Origin: an uncultured Acidobacteriota bacterium
GTDB taxonomy: Bacteria > Acidobacteriota > Vicinamibacteria > Fen-336
Assembly: GCA_963720545.1 (NCBI GenBank)
Contig: OY970399.1
Span: 1,600,001 to 1,664,000, forward strand
DNA length: 64,000 nucleotides
Reading direction: 5' to 3'
Under the pieces are notes generated by a model that searched no databases, was not told the DNA's origin, and saw only the letters and a list, made by a program, of their open reading frames with translations. This document shows positions 54,878 to 64,000 of the stretch, one piece after another; position 1 is the stretch's first letter, and every line of letters begins with the position of its first letter. The position numbers and the translations under genes are program-made.

Positions 54878-54912
54878 GGGCGTCTCCTTGACTGTCCCTG
54901 CATGGAACTATC

Positions 54913-56169
54913 TCACTGCCGAACCTCCTCCGGCGGTCGGGACTCCACGAACTGCCCGAAGAGCACGATGTCGTAGACGATCTTGAGCGTTCCCGCGAGG
55001 AAGAACGGGAGACTCCACAAGGCGGGCCGGGCAAACATGAGGCCCACGAGGAACGGACTGATTGAAGCGCCGACGGTGCGAGCGACGCTGGTAAAGCCTC
55101 CGGCCGCCGCCCGTTCCTCCGGTGCCACGACGGCCATGACGTACGACTGTCTGGCCGGCACGTCCATCTGGCTGATGCTGAACCGGAGAAGGAGCACGGC
55201 GACCGCCCACCACAACGACGGCATCAGCGGAACCAGAATCAGCAGGACGTTCGACGGCAGGTGCGTGAAGACCATCGTCTTGATCAAGCCGATGCGCGCC
55301 GCAAGACGCGATGCGAGCAAGGCTGAGAGGCCGGCGAAAACGTTGGCCCAAAAAAAGATCGCGCCAAGTGCAGCGACATCGACGCCAAACCGCAGGTGGA
55401 ACCAATAGGCCGCGAACGCCTGGACGACGAAGCCACCTCCGAACGAGTCGAGCGCAAACAGCGCCGACAGCTTCATCACGACGCCACGCGAACGATCGAG
55501 TCCTGAGAGCCCGCTGATCATCGTTGCCCTCGACCTCGCGTCCCCGTACGGCCCCGCCTCGGTTCGGTGCGACAGTCCTGCAAAGGTCACGGCGAGCACA
55601 ACGCCCAACACCGCGTACAAAATGACCACGGCCCGATAGCTGTTGAGCGGCAGCATGGCCGCTGCCTGCAAGACGCTGGTGATGACTCCGGCCGACAGCG
55701 CCCCGAGCGCGGTCGCGAAGGACCCCGTGAGCGTATACCAGGCAAACACTTCCGTTCTGTTGCGATCAGTGACCACCTGGGAGAGTGCCGCTTGCTCAAT
55801 CGGCAGGAACGGTCCCACCTCGTGTCCACTTGGACTCAGTACGCCGATTGTCCCCGCAAGCAGAAGCACCCACAGACTTGCCGTCGACGCGAACACGAGT
55901 CCCGCGCCCGTCATGAGTAGCGCGCCAACGATGAGCATGCGTCGACGCCCCATTCGGTCCGCGCGAGTCGTGATCGCCAGGGAAATAACGGTGTCACCAA
56001 GCAGCGTCAGCGTGAGCAGCACCCCGACTTGCTGTTCGCTGAGACCAAGGCGTACCAGGTAGAACACAAGCACGACCGACAACGACCCGTACGCGAAGAG
56101 CCGGATGAACCGCGTCGCAAAGAGCAACTGGGTGTCACGGGCCAAATGCGGGAGAACTGGTCTCAACAT
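54913..56169 (-). CDS. MFS transporter
   Basis: ~12 TM; ADRMGRRR motif A; SQMDVPARQSY; start could be 56199. Confidence 0.88.
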   Translation of the reverse strand: MLRPVLPHLARDTQLLFATRFIRLFAYGSLSVVLVFYLVRLGLSEQQVGVLLTLTLLGDTVISLAITTRADRMGRRRMLIVGALLMTGAGLVFASTASLWVLLLAGTIGVLSPSGHEVGPFLPIEQAALSQVVTDRNRTEVFAWYTLTGSFATALGALSAGVITSVLQAAAMLPLNSYRAVVILYAVLGVVLAVTFAGLSHRTEAGPYGDARSRATMISGLSGLDRSRGVVMKLSALFALDSFGGGFVVQAFAAYWFHLRFGVDVAALGAIFFWANVFAGLSALLASRLAARIGLIKTMVFTHLPSNVLLILVPLMPSLWWAVAVLLLRFSISQMDVPARQSYVMAVVAPEERAAAGGFTSVARTVGASISPFLVGLMFARPALWSLPFFLAGTLKIVYDIVLFGQFVESRPPEEVRQ

Positions 56170-56215
56170 GTCCTCAGCAATTTCGCCGGTCGATGGCACA
56201 AATCGACGTCGTAGT

Positions 56216-56629
56216 TCACCCGCCCGTGGATTGACGCCACCCTTCGTGCTCGAGGAGCCTCTCGACCCGCTGTCGTATCTCGTCCCGAATTTCCCTGACT
56301 CGAGCGAGCGGTTTGCCCTTGGGATCCTCCAGCGGCCAGTCCTCGCGCTCCAGGCCAGGCACGACCGGACACTGATCGCCGCAGCCCATGGTAATCAGCA
56401 TCTGAGCGCCCTGCGCCAGGGCCGGCGTCAGTTTGGATGTCGAGGCTTCTGACAGATCGACGCCGACCTCGGACATGGCGACGACTACTTCCGGATGGAC
56501 GCGCGGCCCCGGCTCCGTGCCGGCGGAGATCGCGCGCGCCCGGGTCGGCTCGGATAACAGATTGAACCACGCAGCGGCCATCTGAGATCGGCCGGCATTG
56601 TGGACGCAGGCGAAGAGCACCGTCTTCAC
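56216..56629 (-). CDS. arsC: Arsenate reductase (LMW-PTPase type)
   Basis: CVHNAGRSQMA, ITMGCGDQCP, DW.LEDP; GTG start overlapping the arsR stop. Confidence 0.92.
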   Translation of the reverse strand: MKTVLFACVHNAGRSQMAAAWFNLLSEPTRARAISAGTEPGPRVHPEVVVAMSEVGVDLSEASTSKLTPALAQGAQMLITMGCGDQCPVVPGLEREDWPLEDPKGKPLARVREIRDEIRQRVERLLEHEGWRQSTGG

Positions 56630-57048
56630 GACGGGGAGATACGAGGTGCACAGCACGTTCCGCCCGCGGGACTGTTGAGGACGTACAGCTGCCCGAATGA
56701 ACGTTGAAACTGCTTCCGGTCCTGCGTCGTGGCTGGCAACTGCTGCAACGCGTCGACTGCAGCCGCGACCACGCGGCGCATCACGGGATTCAGCGATCTC
56801 GACACCTGGTAGTGCATCCACACCCCGTCGCGGCGGGCGGTGACGACACCGCCCTTGCGCAGATACGCAAGATGGCGAGAGACCGTCGGTTGCGGGAGGC
56901 CAAGGCTGTCGTGCAGGTGGCAGACGCACACCTCGTTGTTCCCCAGAAGGGCGAGGATACGCAGGCGCGTAGTGTCGGCGAGAGCCTTGAACAGGCTCTC
57001 CATCTCGTCGACGGCGGCCCGGGATCTGGATTTCGTTGCGTGCTTCAT
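56626..57048 (-). CDS. arsR: As(III)-responsive ArsR/SmtB repressor
   Basis: FKALAD.TRLRIL, EVCVC, QPTVSRHLAYL; C-terminal CC. Confidence 0.9.
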   Translation of the reverse strand: MKHATKSRSRAAVDEMESLFKALADTTRLRILALLGNNEVCVCHLHDSLGLPQPTVSRHLAYLRKGGVVTARRDGVWMHYQVSRSLNPVMRRVVAAAVDALQQLPATTQDRKQFQRSFGQLYVLNSPAGGTCCAPRISPS

Positions 57049-57101
57049 ATATTTGCCTTGACGAATGTACCATCAGTTAATATATTCCCAAAGGCGAATA
57101 T
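57049..57101. promoter_or_regulatory. Paired ArsR-type operators between arsR and arsM
   Basis: Imperfect palindromes ATATTTGCCTTGACGAATGT (57049-57068) and ATATTCCCAAAGGCGAATAT (57082-57101). Confidence 0.65.
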
Positions 57102-57115
57102 CAAAGGAGTAGCCC

Positions 57116-57940
57116 ATGGACGCCGTCAAGGCAGCGGTGCAACAGAAGTATGGCGAGGCAGCGCAGCAGGCCCGTAGCGGAGCGAGGGCAGGTTGTGGAT
57201 GCGGGACGACCTGTGGGCCCGATCCGATCACTTCGAATCTCTACGACGACGCGCAGGCAGCGGGCGTGCCCGCTGAGGCTTTGCTTGCTTCCCTGGGCTG
57301 CGGCAACCCAACTGCGCTGGCGGAGCTGCAACCCGGCGAGGTCGTCCTCGATCTCGGCTCTGGCGGTGGCATCGACGTGCTCCTGTCGGCCAGGCGCGTG
57401 GGCCCGAACGGAAAGGCCTATGGCCTGGACATGACAGACGAAATGCTCGCGCTGGCCCGCGAGAACCTGGCCAAGTCTGGCCTCACGAACGTCGAGTTTC
57501 TCAAGGGCGAGATCGAGCACATCCCGCTTCCCGACAACTCCGTCGATGTGATCATCTCGAATTGCGTGATCAATCTTTCCGCCGACAAGGACCGCGTGCT
57601 CGCGGAGGCGTTCCGCGTTCTAAGGCCAGGCGGTCGTTTCGCCGTGTCGGATGTGGTCGTCAGAGGGGACGACATGCCCGCGGAAGTGCGCCGAAGCATG
57701 GAGCTCTGGGTCGGCTGCGTCGCGGGTGCGCTCGAAGAATCGACCTACCGGAGCAAGTTGTCGAGAGCCGGCTTCGAAGCGGTCGAACTCGAGCCAACGC
57801 GCATCTATCGTGCGGCTGACGCAAAACAGTTTCTTGAAGCGGCAGGATTGTCGGACGACGCAACACTCGCGCAAGTCGACGGCCGGATCATGAGTGCCTT
57901 CGTGCGCGCCCACAAACCGGCTGCGAGCGCCTTGCTCTAA
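57116..57940 (+). CDS. arsM: Arsenite S-adenosylmethionine methyltransferase
   Basis: [42 protein letters not shown]. Confidence 0.93.
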
Positions 57941-57961
57941 GTTCCTTCCTGAGAGAGGAAT

Positions 57962-58036
57962 TGGCTCCTCAGATAGGATTCGAACCTATAACCCTCCGGT
58001 TAACAGCCGGATGCTCTACCATTGAGCTACTGAGGA
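57962..58036 (-). tRNA. tRNA-Asn (GTT)
   Basis: TCCTCAG acceptor stem, D-arm GCTCAATGGTAGAGC, anticodon arm TCCGG-CTGTTAA-CCGGA, T-arm ATAGG-TTCGAAT-CCTAT, encoded CCA. Confidence 0.97.
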
Positions 58037-58091: not shown

Positions 58092-59063
58092 TCAACGAGC
58101 GCGGTCGAGACCTGCCGCGGGGCTCATCGACTGGTGCAGGATGGCCGGCAGCGCGGGTGCCGCGGTTTGCGATTCCCGTCCCGCCACCGTCAGCGGGTCC
58201 CGTTCCAGCGTGATCCCGTGCTCCTGCGCCCAGCGGGTCCACAGGTCCTTGAACGAGTCGCTCAGGCGGTCGATGACGAGCGGCAGGTAGTGGGCGAGGT
58301 CGTTCTGCGGCGTCACCTGCGACGGAGTGGTGACCTTTGCGATCTGCTCGCCGGCTTTCTCAGCTGGTTCGGTCTTCGCGATCGGCGTCTTCTCGGGAAC
58401 GAGCTGCTGGCGGGTCAGGTCGCCGAATACCTTCGTCGCCGCCTGGACGCGTTCGTCGAGCGAACGATTCGGGTCGAGCAGGACGCGCAGCGCGTCGGGG
58501 GACACTCTCGCATCCGTGATGTAGGGGCGCATCTCGGCGGTGGCTTTCTCGGGGTTGCCGGTCTGCGCCATCGTCGACTGGGCGCGGGCAAAGCCTTCGC
58601 TGAGCGCCGCCCGGGCGCCCGATAGGTAAAGCTCGGCGAGGGAATTCGGATCCTGCGGCAGCCTGCCTTCGCTCGCGGCGCGCTGTATTGCGGACAGACC
58701 GCCCATCTGCGAGATCTGGGACAGTTGCTGAGCGATCCTCGGATCGGCGAAGACGGCGGCGCTTGAAGCCTGCGGACCGGCTTGCGACGGGACCTCGGCC
58801 TTGCCGGGCACGGGGACCTGGCCCCTGGGGTTGAGGCGCTCGAGCAGGCTCTTGATGACGGGTGAAGCCGCATTGAACAGCTGGATCGCGGCGGCGGCGT
58901 AGCGCAGCGGCGGGACGAACCTGGGAATGGTCCTGGTGATGAGGCCCACGCCGAGCTTGCCGACCATGCCGGAGATGAAGCCGCCAAGGACGTTTTTCTC
59001 TTTCTTGTCGAGATCGGGCCTGGCGAGGCTTGCGGCTATCGAAGAGACGGTATTCGCGCTCAT
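58092..59063 (-). CDS. Hypothetical (orphan-looking) protein
   Basis: GGAGG RBS before MSANTV; Gln/Ala/Pro-rich and probably helical; no family recognised. Confidence 0.65.
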   Translation of the reverse strand: MSANTVSSIAASLARPDLDKKEKNVLGGFISGMVGKLGVGLITRTIPRFVPPLRYAAAAIQLFNAASPVIKSLLERLNPRGQVPVPGKAEVPSQAGPQASSAAVFADPRIAQQLSQISQMGGLSAIQRAASEGRLPQDPNSLAELYLSGARAALSEGFARAQSTMAQTGNPEKATAEMRPYITDARVSPDALRVLLDPNRSLDERVQAATKVFGDLTRQQLVPEKTPIAKTEPAEKAGEQIAKVTTPSQVTPQNDLAHYLPLVIDRLSDSFKDLWTRWAQEHGITLERDPLTVAGRESQTAAPALPAILHQSMSPAAGLDRAR

Positions 59064-59263: not shown

Positions 59264-61303
59264 ATGTCTCTGCCTCCTGAAATCGAATCCCTCCGCGACC
59301 GCCTGGACGCCGTCGACCAGGCGCTTCTCGACGCCCTTACCGAGCGCACCCGCATCGTCCGCGAAGTGGGACGTTTCAAGGCCGAAAGCGGCGCCAACCT
59401 GCGCGACCTGCCGCGCGAAGAGGAGATCCTGACGCGCCTGGTGGCGCGCGCCGAAGAGGCCGGCCTCGACCGCTTCTTCGTGGCGCGACTCTACAAGGAG
59501 ATCCTGGGCCATTCGATGCGGCTGCAGGAAGCGGCGCTCGGCACCGCCGCGGTGCACGAAGGCCCGGCCCTGCGCGTTGGTTACCAGGGCAGCGAAGGCG
59601 CCTGGTCGCACCTGGCCGCGCAGCGACATTTCGGAGCGCACGACGGCGATGTGTCGCACGTTGGCTTCGACTCGTTCGAGGAGATGCTGCAAGCGGTGCG
59701 CGACGGCGAGGTGGAGCGCGCGCTGTTGCCGGTCGAGAACACGATCTCCGGCTCGATCCCGGCATCCTTCGACCTGCTCGCGGCTCTCGAACTGTCGATC
59801 GTCGGCGAGGAGGTGCAGGAGGTGCAGCACTGCCTGCTGGCACTCGAAGACGTGCCCCTGTCGCGGCTGCGGCGCATCTCGTCGCATCCGGTCGCGCTGG
59901 CGCAGTGCGGCAAGTTCCTGGCGACGCTCGGCAACTGCCACGTCGAGGCGTTCACCGACACCGCGATGGCCGCGCGCCGCGTGCGCGACGAGGCCGACCC
60001 CACGCAGGCCGCGATCGCGAGCGAGGAGGCCGGCCGCATCCACGGGCTCACCGTCATCCGCCGCGGCATCGCCGACCAGCGCGAGAACTTCACGCGCATG
60101 CTGGTGGTGGCGGTGCGGCCGCAGCCCGTCGACCTGCGCGTGCCGTGCAAGACGACGCTGCTCTTCACCACCCGCCACGAGGAAGGCGCCCTCGTCACAT
60201 GCCTCAGCATCCTCGCGGCGCATCACCTCAGCATGACCCGGCTCGAGTCGCGGCCGCGCCCGCACAACCCCTGGGAATACCAGTTCCATCTCGACTTCGA
60301 AGGCAATGTCGCCGACCCGGAAGTGGCGGAGGCGCTGCGCGAGATGGCGACGCAGAGCGGCTACGTGCGCGTCCTCGGGTCGTACCCGGCGCGCACCACC
60401 GCGAGCGTTCGCGCCGCCGAGCCGCGCCCGGCTGTCAGCCCGGCCAAGCGTAGCGCGCAGAAGCCGGTGATCGAGGTTGGCGCTCCCGCGGCGGCGCCCG
60501 CGTCAGGAGGAAGCGCGCCGCCAATGGCCTCGCGCACCTACCGGCGCGAGGACACGGTCATCCCGGTCGGCACGGCCCTCATTGGCGGGCCGGTGCCGGT
60601 GATCATCGCCGGACCGTGCGCGGTGGAGTCGGAGGAACAGATCCAGGCGTGCGCGCGCGTCGTGAAGGCGATGGGCGCGCAGATCCTGCGCGGCGGCTGC
60701 TTCAAGCCGCGCACCTCGCCGTACTCGTTCCAGGGCCACGGCTTCGAGGCGCTCGCCTGGCTCGCCGACGCCGGGGCCGAGGCGGGCCTGCCGATCGTCA
60801 CCGAGGTGATGCATCCGCAGGACGTCGGCCCGGTGGCCGAGCGCGCCCACATCCTGCAGATCGGCGCACGCAACATGCAGAACTTCTCGCTGCTGAAGGA
60901 AGTGGGCAAGGTGGACCGGCCGGTGATGCTGAAGCGCGGCATGATGGCGTCGATTGAGGAATGGCTGTCGGCGTCGGAATACATCCTGAGCCACGGCAAC
61001 CAGATGGTGTTCCTGTGCGAGCGCGGCATCCGCACCTTCGAAACCGCGACCCGCAACACCCTCGACCTCAGCGCCGTGCCGGTGCTGCGCGAGCGCACCC
61101 ACCTGCCGGTGATCGTGGACCCGTCGCACGCGGTCGGCGTGCGCCGCTTCATCCCGCCGATGGCCGAGGCGGCGCTCGCGAGCGGCGCGCAGGGCGTAAT
61201 GCTCGAGATCCATCCCGACCCGGAGAAGGCGCTGTCCGACGGTCCGCAGGCCCTGACGTTCGAAATGTTCGAACAGCTCATGGCGCGGATCGGCGGCGCG
61301 TGA
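59264..61303 (+). CDS. Fused chorismate mutase / prephenate dehydratase (+ACT) / DAHP synthase I-beta
   Basis: Aro[95 protein letters not shown]. Confidence 0.92.
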
Positions 61304-62499
61304 GCCGGGAGTTGGCCGTCAACCCGCGCCTCGCGCGGGTGCCGCCCTACATCCCCGAGCGGCTGAGGGCGCTGCTCGCGGGCATCGTTCCCAAACCGGA
61401 TCCCGCAAAGCCACCGGTGGTACTCGCGGCCGGCGAGCCGCGGCACGAGTCGCCCGCCGCTGTGCGTGCCGCCCTGCACGAAGCGTCGGCGCGGTTGCAG
61501 GACTATCCGGACGCCCGTGGCGAGGCTGCGCTGCGTGAAGCGATCGCCGGCTGGCTCGGGCGGCGGTTCGCGCCGCTGCGGCTCGATCCCGCGAGCGAAG
61601 TGCTGCCGACGCTTGGCAGCCGTGAGGCCATCTTCGACATCGTGCAGTGCCTCGTCGATCCCGCTGCCGAATCGGTCGCCGTCATCCCCAACCCGCTCTA
61701 CCCTATCTACGAGGGGGCTGCGATCCTTGCCGGCGCCGTGCCGTATTTCGCGGCCGACGTGCTGGCCGTCGCACCGGACGTGCTGGAACGAGCGGCGCTC
61801 CTGTTCGTCTGTTCGCCGAGCAACCCCACCGGACGCGTGCTCGGGCAGGACGAGTGGGCGCGGCTCTTCGAGCAGTCCGATCGTCACGGCTTCGTGCTGG
61901 TGGCCGACGAGTGCTACTCGGAGATCTATCCGGACGAGTCAAGGCCGCCGGTGGGCGCGCTGCAGGCCGCGGCACGGCTGGGTCGCGGCTTGCGCAACAT
62001 CGTGAGCCTCGGCAGCTTGTCGAAGCGCTCCAGCGTTCCCGGCCTGCGGTCGGGCTATGCCGCGGGCGACCCTACGGTGCTGGCCGCGTTCCTCCACTAC
62101 CGCACCTACAGCGGCAGCGCGATGGGTCCGCCGGCGCAGGCGGCAAGCATCGCCGCGTTCGACGACGACGCGTACGTGGTTGCGAACCGCGAAGCCTACC
62201 GGCGCAAGCTCGTCGCGTTCCACGCGATCGTCGCTCCGGTGGCGGCACTGCCGATGCCCGAAGGCGGCTTTTATTTCTGGATGCCGACGCCAGGCGACGA
62301 CCTCACCTTCGTGCAGCGGCTCTATGCCGAAGAGAACGTCAAGGTGCTGCCCGGTTCCTTCTTCGGTCGAGACGGCAGCGGTGCTGCTGGCGGTGCCAAC
62401 CCCGGTTCCGGACGCGTCCGCATCTCGATGACCGCGCCGTACGACGAATGCGTCGAGGGTGCGAAACGCATCGCGGCGCTGCTGGGCCGCTGGCGCTAA
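61300..62499 (+). CDS. dapC: Succinyldiaminopimelate aminotransferase (class I PLP)
   Basis: [51 protein letters not shown]. Confidence 0.82.
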
Positions 62500-62562
62500 A
62501 GCTCTCCAGGTCAACAGTTTGAATCCAGAGTAGTGAGAGGGCGCCTGAGCTAGTCTTGCGCC

Positions 62563-64000
62563 ATGAGGCTGCGCCTTGTGGCAGGCATTGCGTGCGCGCT
62601 GGCCGGACTCGCGGCACTCGGCGCAGGCACACCAGCGACGCCGCGCACCGCCTCGCCACTCGCGCCGGAGATCGCGCGCCTCCGCGCGGTACTCGATGCC
62701 GCGCCGCAGAGCGACGAAGTGAAAGAGACGGCTCCCGGGCTGCGCGACGCGCTCGACCGCGCCGCGGCTCACGAACGCGCGGGGCGGTTCCTCGCCGCGG
62801 TGGACACGCTCGAGTACGCACGCAGCACCATCCTCGCCCTCGACACCATGGCGCGGCAGACGCCTGCCGACGGCGGCGACCTCGACCGCTTCACTGCGGC
62901 GTGGCAGGCGGCGGGACCCGGCCTCGAGAAGGACGCGCGCACGTGGGCCGGACAGTCGTGGGCGGGAGTTCCGGCAGCCGTGCGCGCGGTTGCCGAGAGC
63001 GCCTTTGGCCGCTCACAACACCTCTACCAGGCAGCCGACTCCTACGCGCGTGTGACCTCGCCGGCCGCCGGCTACTACTACATGGGCGAAGCGCAGGGCA
63101 CCATGACTTCCGCACTCTTCGTACGCGGGCTCGGTGCACCGCGAAGCGGCGCCGCGGCTCCGGCCGCGCGCAGCCTCAAGGGCGAGCGCACATCGCTCGC
63201 GAAACGCATCGAGGCGATCTACAAGCCGCCGCTGGCGATCGACCGCCATCCCGACTTCATCCGCACCAACTCCGCGCTCAAGCTGGCCGGCGAGCTCGAC
63301 GATGCCGGCCTGCGCTACGGCGCGCTCCTCGCCTACCTCAAGGCGGAGCGCGGGCTCGGCGAGCTGCTCCTGCCGGTGCCGCAGGCGGGCGAGCGCGGTG
63401 CGATCGAGGCGCGGCTCAAGGAAGCTCACGAGCGCCATGCCACGGCGCAACGCGACGACAGCATCGCGCTCGTCCTCATCGAGGCGGCGCAAGGCGGCAT
63501 CGAGAGCGCGCGTGACGATGCGGCGCGCGGTACGGCGCTGCGCACCGCGAGCGCCGTGCTCGACCAGGCGCTGCCGGCGTATCGGGCGACTCTCGAGGAT
63601 TCGGTCCCGGAAAAGCTCACTGCGGCGACGGCCGCGCCCGCGGTCAGGGTCACGCTGGTGCGCTGGCCGTACACCTGAAACCTGTCCGATCCGGCAAGTT
63701 TGCTGGCCAGGGAAGTCGCCGACCGTTATCAGGGCCGTGTCGAGTTCGTCAGCGAGAACTTCGGCGAATCGGAACTCGCCCGCAGGTTCGGGGTTACCCG
63801 CTACCCGGCCATCTTCGTCGACGACGTGCTCGTCGCCCGGCCCATCGACTTCGGCTTCTTCGCGAAAGGCGAGACCGCCGGCCGCTATACGCCGTTTCGC
63901 GACCCGAAGAGCCACGCGCGCTTCCAGGCCGATCTCGCACGCATGATCGACCTGGTGCTCGCGGGCCGCAAGGAAGATCTGCGCGCCGAGCGCACGGGTG
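62563..64000 (+). CDS. Secreted probable selenoprotein: helical N-domain plus thioredoxin-fold domain with UxxS; truncated by window edge
   Basis: Signal peptide; the frame stays open and coding-like for 107 codons after TGA 63676: VTLVRWPYT-U-NLSDPASLLAREVADRYQGRVEFVSENFGESELARRFGVTRYPAIFVDD. Confidence 0.8.
63679..63711 (+). promoter_or_regulatory. Bacterial SECIS-like hairpin
   Basis: Upper stem CCGGCA/TGCTGG (63691-63706) with loop AGTT; loop G-T at +23/+24 counting from the T of TGA; lower stem CCTG/CAGG. Confidence 0.75.

Follow-up and report, generated by a model that had tools for sequence, protein, structure and literature searches.

An apparent stop codon read as selenocysteine almost certainly joins two apparent genes into one exported redox protein of uncultured soil bacteria

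Reading frame across the TGA at 63676

Does the TGA at positions 63676 to 63678, close to the end of this stretch of DNA, terminate a gene, or does it specify an amino acid within a longer one? The window, that is, the whole 64,000-nucleotide stretch analysed, corresponds to positions C1:1600001-1664000 of a 4.09-Mb genome with a GC content of 68.7%. On the plus strand, a frame opens with the ATG at 62563 and encounters the TGA as its codon 372; past this codon, the same frame is free of stops through the window end and reaches a TAG at genome position C1:1664429, 431 nt beyond the window and 250 codons after the TGA. The read-through gene (62563..64000, continuing to genome position C1:1664431) encodes a product of 622 amino acids, the first 479 codons of which lie inside the window. 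The apparent stop is almost certainly read as selenocysteine (Sec), which makes the 2 apparent genes a single exported redox protein, belonging to a family that is common among uncultured bacteria of soil.

The first-pass annotation, made from the letters of the window, had claimed that the frame stays open to the window end with host-like codon use and that standard gene callers would split the gene. The open frame was borne out, the downstream part passes the coding filter (GC3 ≥ 0.80, GC2 ≤ 0.58) that 13 hairpin-bearing TGA sites pass genome-wide, and 85 of the 93 database proteins carrying the N-terminal helical domain of the product stop at the TGA. The amino acids quoted on either side of this codon likewise agree with the sequence. 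The statement that there is no obvious restart was too strong, with an in-frame TTG at 63700, inside the downstream hairpin, offering gene callers a possible start and most database relatives of the Sec-containing domain starting just past the TGA. The family is systematically misannotated as 2 hypothetical proteins.

Conservation of the TGA and of its hairpin

Homologues of the locus were collected from 61 related genomes, 21 of which carry the motif, a GTDB scan, 1 metagenome locus and a 401-genome sample of the phylum (22 carriers). The GTDB scan yielded 149 confirmed loci, of which the best 79 were retained; among these 79, 70 bear titles of Acidobacteriota or its classes, the other titles including Eisenbacteria (3), delta proteobacteria (2), Planctomycetota (1) and Kofleriaceae (1). 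The 123 pooled loci correspond to 115 distinct sites. Separately, 5 duplicate loci and 2 TGG matches representing unrelated open reading frames were discarded, and 1 partial family match (L038) showed no motif. The codon at the site is TGA in 114 of the 115 sites and TGC in the remaining one (L060), which is a Cys homologue at the DNA level; TAA, TAG and TGG were found in none. Among 135 representatives of the Sec domain from protein databases, 7 span the site recognizably, with 6 carrying Cys and 1 Arg as judged from the protein records alone. Records with Cys at the site include P0004 and P0005, and those with neither Sec nor Cys are P0068 (Arg) and the distant P0092 (Asp), again on the basis of protein records alone. 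DNA contigs assembled from sequencing runs cover the gene only in pieces and contribute no decisive evidence. A Thermoanaerobaculia contig carries 2 tandem copies of the selenoprotein gene (L084:147 and L084:1933).

The first-pass annotation had placed a hairpin just downstream of the TGA, and it is present on the plus strand at 63691..63706 (TGA at 63676..63678), with a 7-bp stem and an invariant GU loop at 63698-63699. With the U of UGA taken as nucleotide 1, the hairpin occupies nucleotides 16 to 31 and the loop G and U are nucleotides 23 and 24. It is kept at every TGA site: 6 of the pairs and the GU loop are retained in 114/114 sites and the pair at the base in 104/114. At the closing position, 67 of these sites have A-U, 46 G-C and 1 G-U, and none is unpaired; on a FastTree tree covering 112 of the 115 sites and built solely from residues beyond the hairpin, this closing pair changes between A-U and G-C approximately 13 times, with at least 4 changes forced by starred (well-supported) branches, so that the check for covariation was positive. 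Codon choice over the hairpin is equally constrained. Codon +6 is GCA in 95/95 TGA genes, compared to 4.4% of the Ala codons downstream, codon +7 is AGT in 54/54 genes with Ser at this position, compared to 1.4% of the downstream Ser codons, and codon +9 is CTG in all 95. In the TGC homologue, the residues P-A-S-L are kept with ordinary codons and the hairpin is lost (−0.6 versus −7.7 kcal/mol). The folding energy of the hairpin shows no excess over shuffled sequences (z of 0.65, −0.22 and 0.36); the evidence for the predicted element comes from its conservation and covariation rather than from energy. With its 16 nt frozen, its compensatory changes recurring and its loss in the Cys form, the hairpin amounts to an unusually clean natural SECIS experiment.

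The bacterial SECIS model given in the accessible part of PMC13188914 has a loop of 3 to 9 nt, a stem of 4 to 16 bp and a G in the first 2 loop positions, with a spacing of 16 to 37 nt and a minimum free energy of −7.5 kcal/mol or below. Counted in this way, the hairpin falls within those limits, with a 6-bp stem, a 4-nt loop the ends of which can pair, G as the second loop nucleotide, a spacing of 18 nt and −7.7 kcal/mol for the 24-nt piece. The likeness to the Escherichia coli fdhF SECIS put forward in the first-pass annotation holds in part. According to the accessible part of PMC8659212, the fdhF element shares the stem within nucleotides 15 to 31 after UGA and the apical-loop G23 and U24, but has a bulged U17, termed essential in E. 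coli, whereas nucleotide 17 is a paired C in 114/114 sites of the present family. The U17-less hairpin provides a direct test of what the SelB of this phylum reads. A genome-wide pattern for this particular hairpin following TGA matched 4 sites, of which only the one at 63676 has long frames on both sides, and an Rfam scan of positions 62000-64000 returned 6 matches, all far below their gathering scores.

The genome encodes SelA, SelB and SelD, each above the profile cut-off, as well as tRNA-Sec (selC), so that all 4 genes that the first-pass annotation had proposed to look for are present. The tRNA-Trp has the anticodon CCA, and the sole tRNA with UCA is tRNA-Sec. In the phylum sample, selB occurs in 22/22 carriers of the family versus 297/401 genomes overall; the corresponding P value of 0.0011 assumes independent genomes, which their kinship violates, and the 22-carrier tallies include the unpublished genome G082. 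Among the 61 close genomes, carriers have selB in 21/21 and selA in 20/21 cases versus 52/61 and 50/61 overall, a co-occurrence that says little because selB is so common in this set. Across the phylum sample, the 297 genomes with selB far outnumber the 22 carriers of the family. The SelD of the genome (C1:2243183-2244100) has Cys rather than Sec in its N-terminal motif. A second selenoprotein gene, from a catalogued, deiodinase-like family, is located at C1:400134-403619 (PF00837, 114.5 bits, above cut-off), with the TGA at genome position 401754 in the motif S-C-T-U-P-P-F and a 7-bp hairpin downstream. A molybdopterin-enzyme locus with stops (L229) was rejected as a further candidate, as it has no Sec-His site and looks frameshifted.

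Taken with the 114 TGA and 1 TGC codons, the covarying hairpin and the complete Sec machinery, these sequence patterns leave very little doubt that SelB binds the hairpin at 63691-63706 and inserts selenocysteine at UGA372, so that the 622-residue protein is made. The first-pass annotation had proposed this decoding of the UGA. The homologue search it suggested recovered both the conserved TGA and a Cys form, and none of the findings it had named as speaking against Sec turned up: neither TAA, TAG nor a Trp codon occurs at any of the 115 sites, the Sec machinery is complete and, where relatives have separate genes, the break lies before the TGA and not at it. That the TGA is instead a true stop between 2 genes, with a restart at TTG 63700, or else a recent nonsense lesion or assembly error, is very improbable. 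The TTG itself, the unremarkable folding energy and the annotation of 2 genes by gene callers would fit such a stop, but the lack of TAA or TAG among the 115 sites, the TGC in an intact homologue, the SECIS-type freezing of codons, the covariation and the co-occurrence with selB all argue against it, and a stop at this point would sever the first beta-strand from its domain. Reading of UGA as Trp or Cys, through an alternative code or leaky read-through, has next to no probability, given that TGG occurs at 0/115 sites, that the tRNA complement offers a UCA anticodon solely on tRNA-Sec and that the hairpin is kept only with TGA, even if the Cys homologues indicate that Cys is tolerated.

Domain architecture of the protein and its relatives

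The AlphaFold2 model of the whole protein, built from 32 homologues (mean pLDDT 86, pTM 0.80), begins with a disordered signal-like segment, matching a probable signal peptide at approximately residues 1-22 (62563..62628, plus strand) with a basic N-terminus and the sole hydrophobic stretch of the sequence; hydropathy peaks at 1.95 over residues 3-21, with no other 19-residue window exceeding 1.5. Many relatives have similar N-termini, signal-like as judged by eye. From these sequence features, the protein is very likely exported to the cell envelope.

The signal peptide is followed by an all-helical domain (residues 33-344, 62659..63594, plus strand) comprising 13 helices, which was modelled on its own from 70 sequences with a pLDDT of 96.5. 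Its invariant residues are Y173, H229, F232, I233 and D298, it has no conserved Cys, and it displays a weak internal two-fold repeat over its approximately 310 residues (HHalign of the halves, P 0.004, probability 7.8%). No Pfam family was matched in more than 3 of the 70 members, and Foldseek returned nothing at E ≤ 0.001. The best VIA matches (Z of 10.8, 10.3 and 10.0 over 69-94 residues) are within the chance range for helical matches and were rejected; they are three-helix bundles, one of them being the periplasmic insert of the Myxococcus TatC. The helical domain thus matches no known fold or family among those compared, which does not make its fold new.

The Sec domain, at residues 361-476 (63643..63990, plus strand), was modelled with a thioredoxin-like topology, beta-alpha-beta-alpha-beta-beta-alpha. 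It contains the motif W-P-Y-T-U-N-L-S-D-P, and an invariant proline, P415, follows Tyr at the cis-Pro position. HHalign relates the domain to both protein-disulfide-oxidoreductase domains of TIGR02187 (P 4.7e-5 and 4.8e-4), and all 7 PDB sequence matches at E ≤ 1 are thioredoxin-fold proteins, the best with an E value of 0.2. The claim of a thioredoxin fold running across the TGA thus agrees with the modelled topology, the invariant P415 and the HHalign result. The domain is divergent, with 37 invariant columns among 19 sequences and no profile of Pfam 2025 or NCBIfam 20.0 reaching its cut-off; the AhpC/TSA, GPx and deiodinase profiles did not match. Matches of the Sec-domain profile to endoplasmin (E 0.012) were discarded as a short motif coincidence that disappeared with a wider profile.

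The first-pass annotation had described a helical domain fused to a U-x-x-S thioredoxin domain. This fusion stands, and extension of the contig beyond the window added a third domain that had been missed, at residues 483-621 (C1:1664009-1664431, outside the window, plus strand), which resembles TlpA, ResA and DsbE and bears the motif W-C520-P-P-C523. This CPPC domain scores 44.8 bits with the Pfam Redoxin profile (cut-off 26.6) and aligns with 3gl3 by VIA over 138 residues (Z 20.3, rmsd 1.9); the structure searches with the whole protein were taken up by matches to residues 481-622. A W-x-x-W-C-x-x-C domain is present in frame at 112 of the 115 family sites.

Split and permuted architectures of the family had also escaped the first-pass annotation. 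The helical domain is found within the locus in 22/22 sampled carriers: 15 have it fused in front and 5 as a neighbouring gene upstream, 1 has it fused after the CPPC domain, and in the last it is out of frame, in what looks like a frameshift. In the 5 carriers of the adjacent-gene form, the Sec protein has its own signal peptide. In one genus (g27), 11/11 loci are split, 10 of them with an ATGA overlap, and the N-terminus of the second gene product has a twin-arginine-like pattern, recognized by script in 10 of the 11 and by eye in the other, on the basis of sequence pattern; one of the 10 script-matched signals has an internal stop, and the NCBIfam Tat models did not match any of 3 g27 N-termini at E ≤ 0.01. 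The break in split forms is 38-46 codons before the TGA and never at it. Programmed frameshifting in g27 was considered and rejected, there being no shared slippery sequence and the second gene having its own start and signal. Permuted forms (P0061, P0119 and P0139) and forms lacking the CPPC domain (P0023, P0054, P0140 and P0153) are present in the databases, along with short signal-bearing Cys-domain proteins with neither partner domain in the protein (P0040 and P0044). When a permuted homologue served as query for a metagenome scan, most matches were generic TlpA genes. The existence of fused, split and permuted forms opens the function of the helical partner to testing. In one database protein, P0063, the thioredoxin-like domain, here in a Cys form, follows an ECF sigma factor; the fusion may serve redox sensing or be an artefact of assembly.

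Relation to known selenoproteins and candidate function

By the sequence tests applied, the gene is that of a bacterial selenoprotein and would work like an exported thioredoxin-family oxidoreductase. The best profile match of the Sec domain is TIGR02187, the protein-disulfide oxidoreductase (AhpF-N-terminal-domain homologue, UxxC), yet with 16.8-20.4 bits against a cut-off of 185, at an E value of 0.024 in 2 of 19 members. Both have tandem thioredoxin folds with Sec first (in the present protein, probably so) in a CxxC-type site, and TIGR02187 loci of the same clade have a SECIS at the same distance, with the stem at nucleotides 15-31 and a GU loop. However, TIGR02187 has its UxxC in the C-terminal domain, whereas in the present protein the Sec domain, with a probable U-x-x-S site, precedes a TlpA-like second domain, and a signal peptide and helical partner are added. 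The window's genome was found to contain no TIGR02187 protein; in relatives, 25 of 30 TIGR02187 loci (L234-L263) have a TGA at the active-site Cys.

The exported thiol-disulfide reductases TlpA, ResA and DsbE (CcmG; PF08534) share the fold and the W-C-P-P-C of residues 483-621, but here this is the C-terminal domain of a larger protein, with Sec outside it, and it stays below the NCBIfam cut-offs (ResA 51.6/170, TlpA 51/230, DsbE 31.6/123). Selenoproteins of the TlpA/redoxin type, namely NF041054 (WAxxUGC), UGC-TlpA, thiol-disulfide-isomerase-like UxxC and Prx-like UxxS (cd02970), also combine a thioredoxin fold with Sec at a CxxC-derived site; going by the domain identifiers in the accessible part of PMC13188914, their Sec is in the TlpA- or Prx-like domain itself, whereas in the present protein the TlpA-like domain keeps 2 Cys and Sec resides in a separate, divergent domain. 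NF041054 scores 31.9 against a cut-off of 300, matching the CPPC domain only. The protein falls outside TIGR02187, NF041054 and all other profiles tested.

The family was not matched in Table 1 of 119 selenoprotein families (PMC13188914, 2026), where, in the part accessible, U-x-x-S appears for a rhodanese form, arsenate reductase and a Prx-like family only, and it is not described in the accessible parts of PMC12013277, PMC8659212 and PMC13326102. The literature searched contains no description of it, although BSepDB or supplementary lists could include it under a different name. Judged against these partly accessible sources, it is apparently uncatalogued, a new family and architecture within the thioredoxin-fold selenoproteins. 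A phylum that ranks among the most abundant in soil gains an apparently uncatalogued selenoprotein family. Almost entirely in the Sec form at the DNA sites analysed (114/115), this family is tied to a domain without a known fold match and is predicted to be exported.

The Sec site with its Ser at the probable resolving position (S375, 63685..63687, plus strand), named U-x-x-S in the first-pass annotation, was recovered. Position +3 is Ser at 114 of the 115 sites and Cys at one (L226, a natural U-T-L-C variant), and U-x-x-S with Sec as the nucleophile is therefore probably the correct register on sequence grounds. A gapless alignment places U on the Sec or first Cys of TIGR02187, whereas of 2 other alignments one places U on the second Cys and the other D-P-A-S on CxxC; because of these 2 and a poorly modelled Sec loop (residues 371-375, pLDDT < 50), the register as annotated is favoured rather than settled.

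A monothiol Sec site has to be resolved from outside, most obviously by the fused CPPC domain, and we therefore favour a self-recycling thiol-repair reductase or isomerase of the envelope, with the helical partner selecting the client; we give this reading an even chance. The U372 selenolate would attack an oxidized client cysteine (a wrong disulfide, sulfenic acid or mixed disulfide) bound or presented by the helical domain. With no resolving Cys at the site, the Se-S adduct would be released by the neighbouring C520/C523 domain, which might in turn be re-reduced from the cytoplasm through CcdA/DsbD; the genome has one CcdA/DsbD gene, 1.3 Mb from the selenoprotein gene. The pKa of Sec is far below that of Cys, and Sec would keep the nucleophile ionized at low envelope pH. 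If translation ended at the UGA, the secreted product would consist of the helical domain and lack both redox domains. These steps derive from domain content and general knowledge of thioredoxin-fold relays. As some database forms lack the CPPC domain or both partners, an internal relay is not obligatory.

More tentatively, U372 might be oxidized by H2O2 or an organic peroxide, in the manner of GPx or 1-Cys peroxiredoxins, or reduce a small substrate in a pocket shared with H229, Y173 and D298 of the helical domain, with CPPC as a built-in reductant. A monothiol Sec site fused to its reductant is in keeping with peroxidases, the helical domain has invariant polar residues, the alignment that sets U on the second Cys does so as in peroxiredoxins, and the U-bearing loop exceeds that of thioredoxin in length or mobility. 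However, the Sec domain lacks any AhpC/TSA, GPx or deiodinase match, its closest profiles are protein-disulfide oxidoreductases and PDI, and a small-molecule peroxidase has no obvious need for a 310-residue partner. It is unlikely that the helical His, Tyr and Asp form one composite active site with Sec (in trans in split forms), constituting new envelope selenoprotein chemistry, with UGA read-through serving as a selenium-dependent switch that decides whether the secreted helical protein or the complete enzyme is made; for a putative contact between the 2 domains, the fused model gives a pTM of 0.80. Still less likely is a chaperone or maturation factor for metals or cofactors in the envelope (Cu, Hg or heme-protein assembly), in which Sec would ligate the metal, CPPC keep the ligands reduced and the helical domain dock on the client. 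TlpA, ResA and CcmG relatives serve cytochrome c and CuA assembly, and the kinship of the CPPC domain to them (from general knowledge and PDB titles), the invariant His and the twin-arginine-like signals of g27, suggestive of export in a folded or loaded state, would suit this role, but the neighbour clusters listed show no conserved ccm, sco, cox or metal-resistance linkage, only one His is invariant and most members have ordinary signal peptides. The thiol-repair reading keeps our preference over the peroxide or small-molecule reductase and the chaperone.

No conserved gene neighbourhood was found, the largest neighbour cluster being present at 12 of 73 loci. In the window, a dapC-like transaminase gene (61300-62499) lies directly upstream of the selenoprotein gene, preceded by a 679-aa open reading frame (59264-61303, plus strand) fusing chorismate mutase, prephenate dehydratase and DAHP synthase domains. 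An open reading frame of approximately 320 aa (58092-59063, minus strand), without an NCBIfam match, lies between this fusion gene and a tRNA-Asn gene (57962-58036, minus strand). The tRNA gene ends an arsenic-resistance-like cluster (54900-58036) in which an arsenite methyltransferase (57116-57940) scores above cut-off and ArsR-, ArsC- and MFS-like open reading frames were judged by eye; this cluster is possibly an island integrated at tRNA-Asn.
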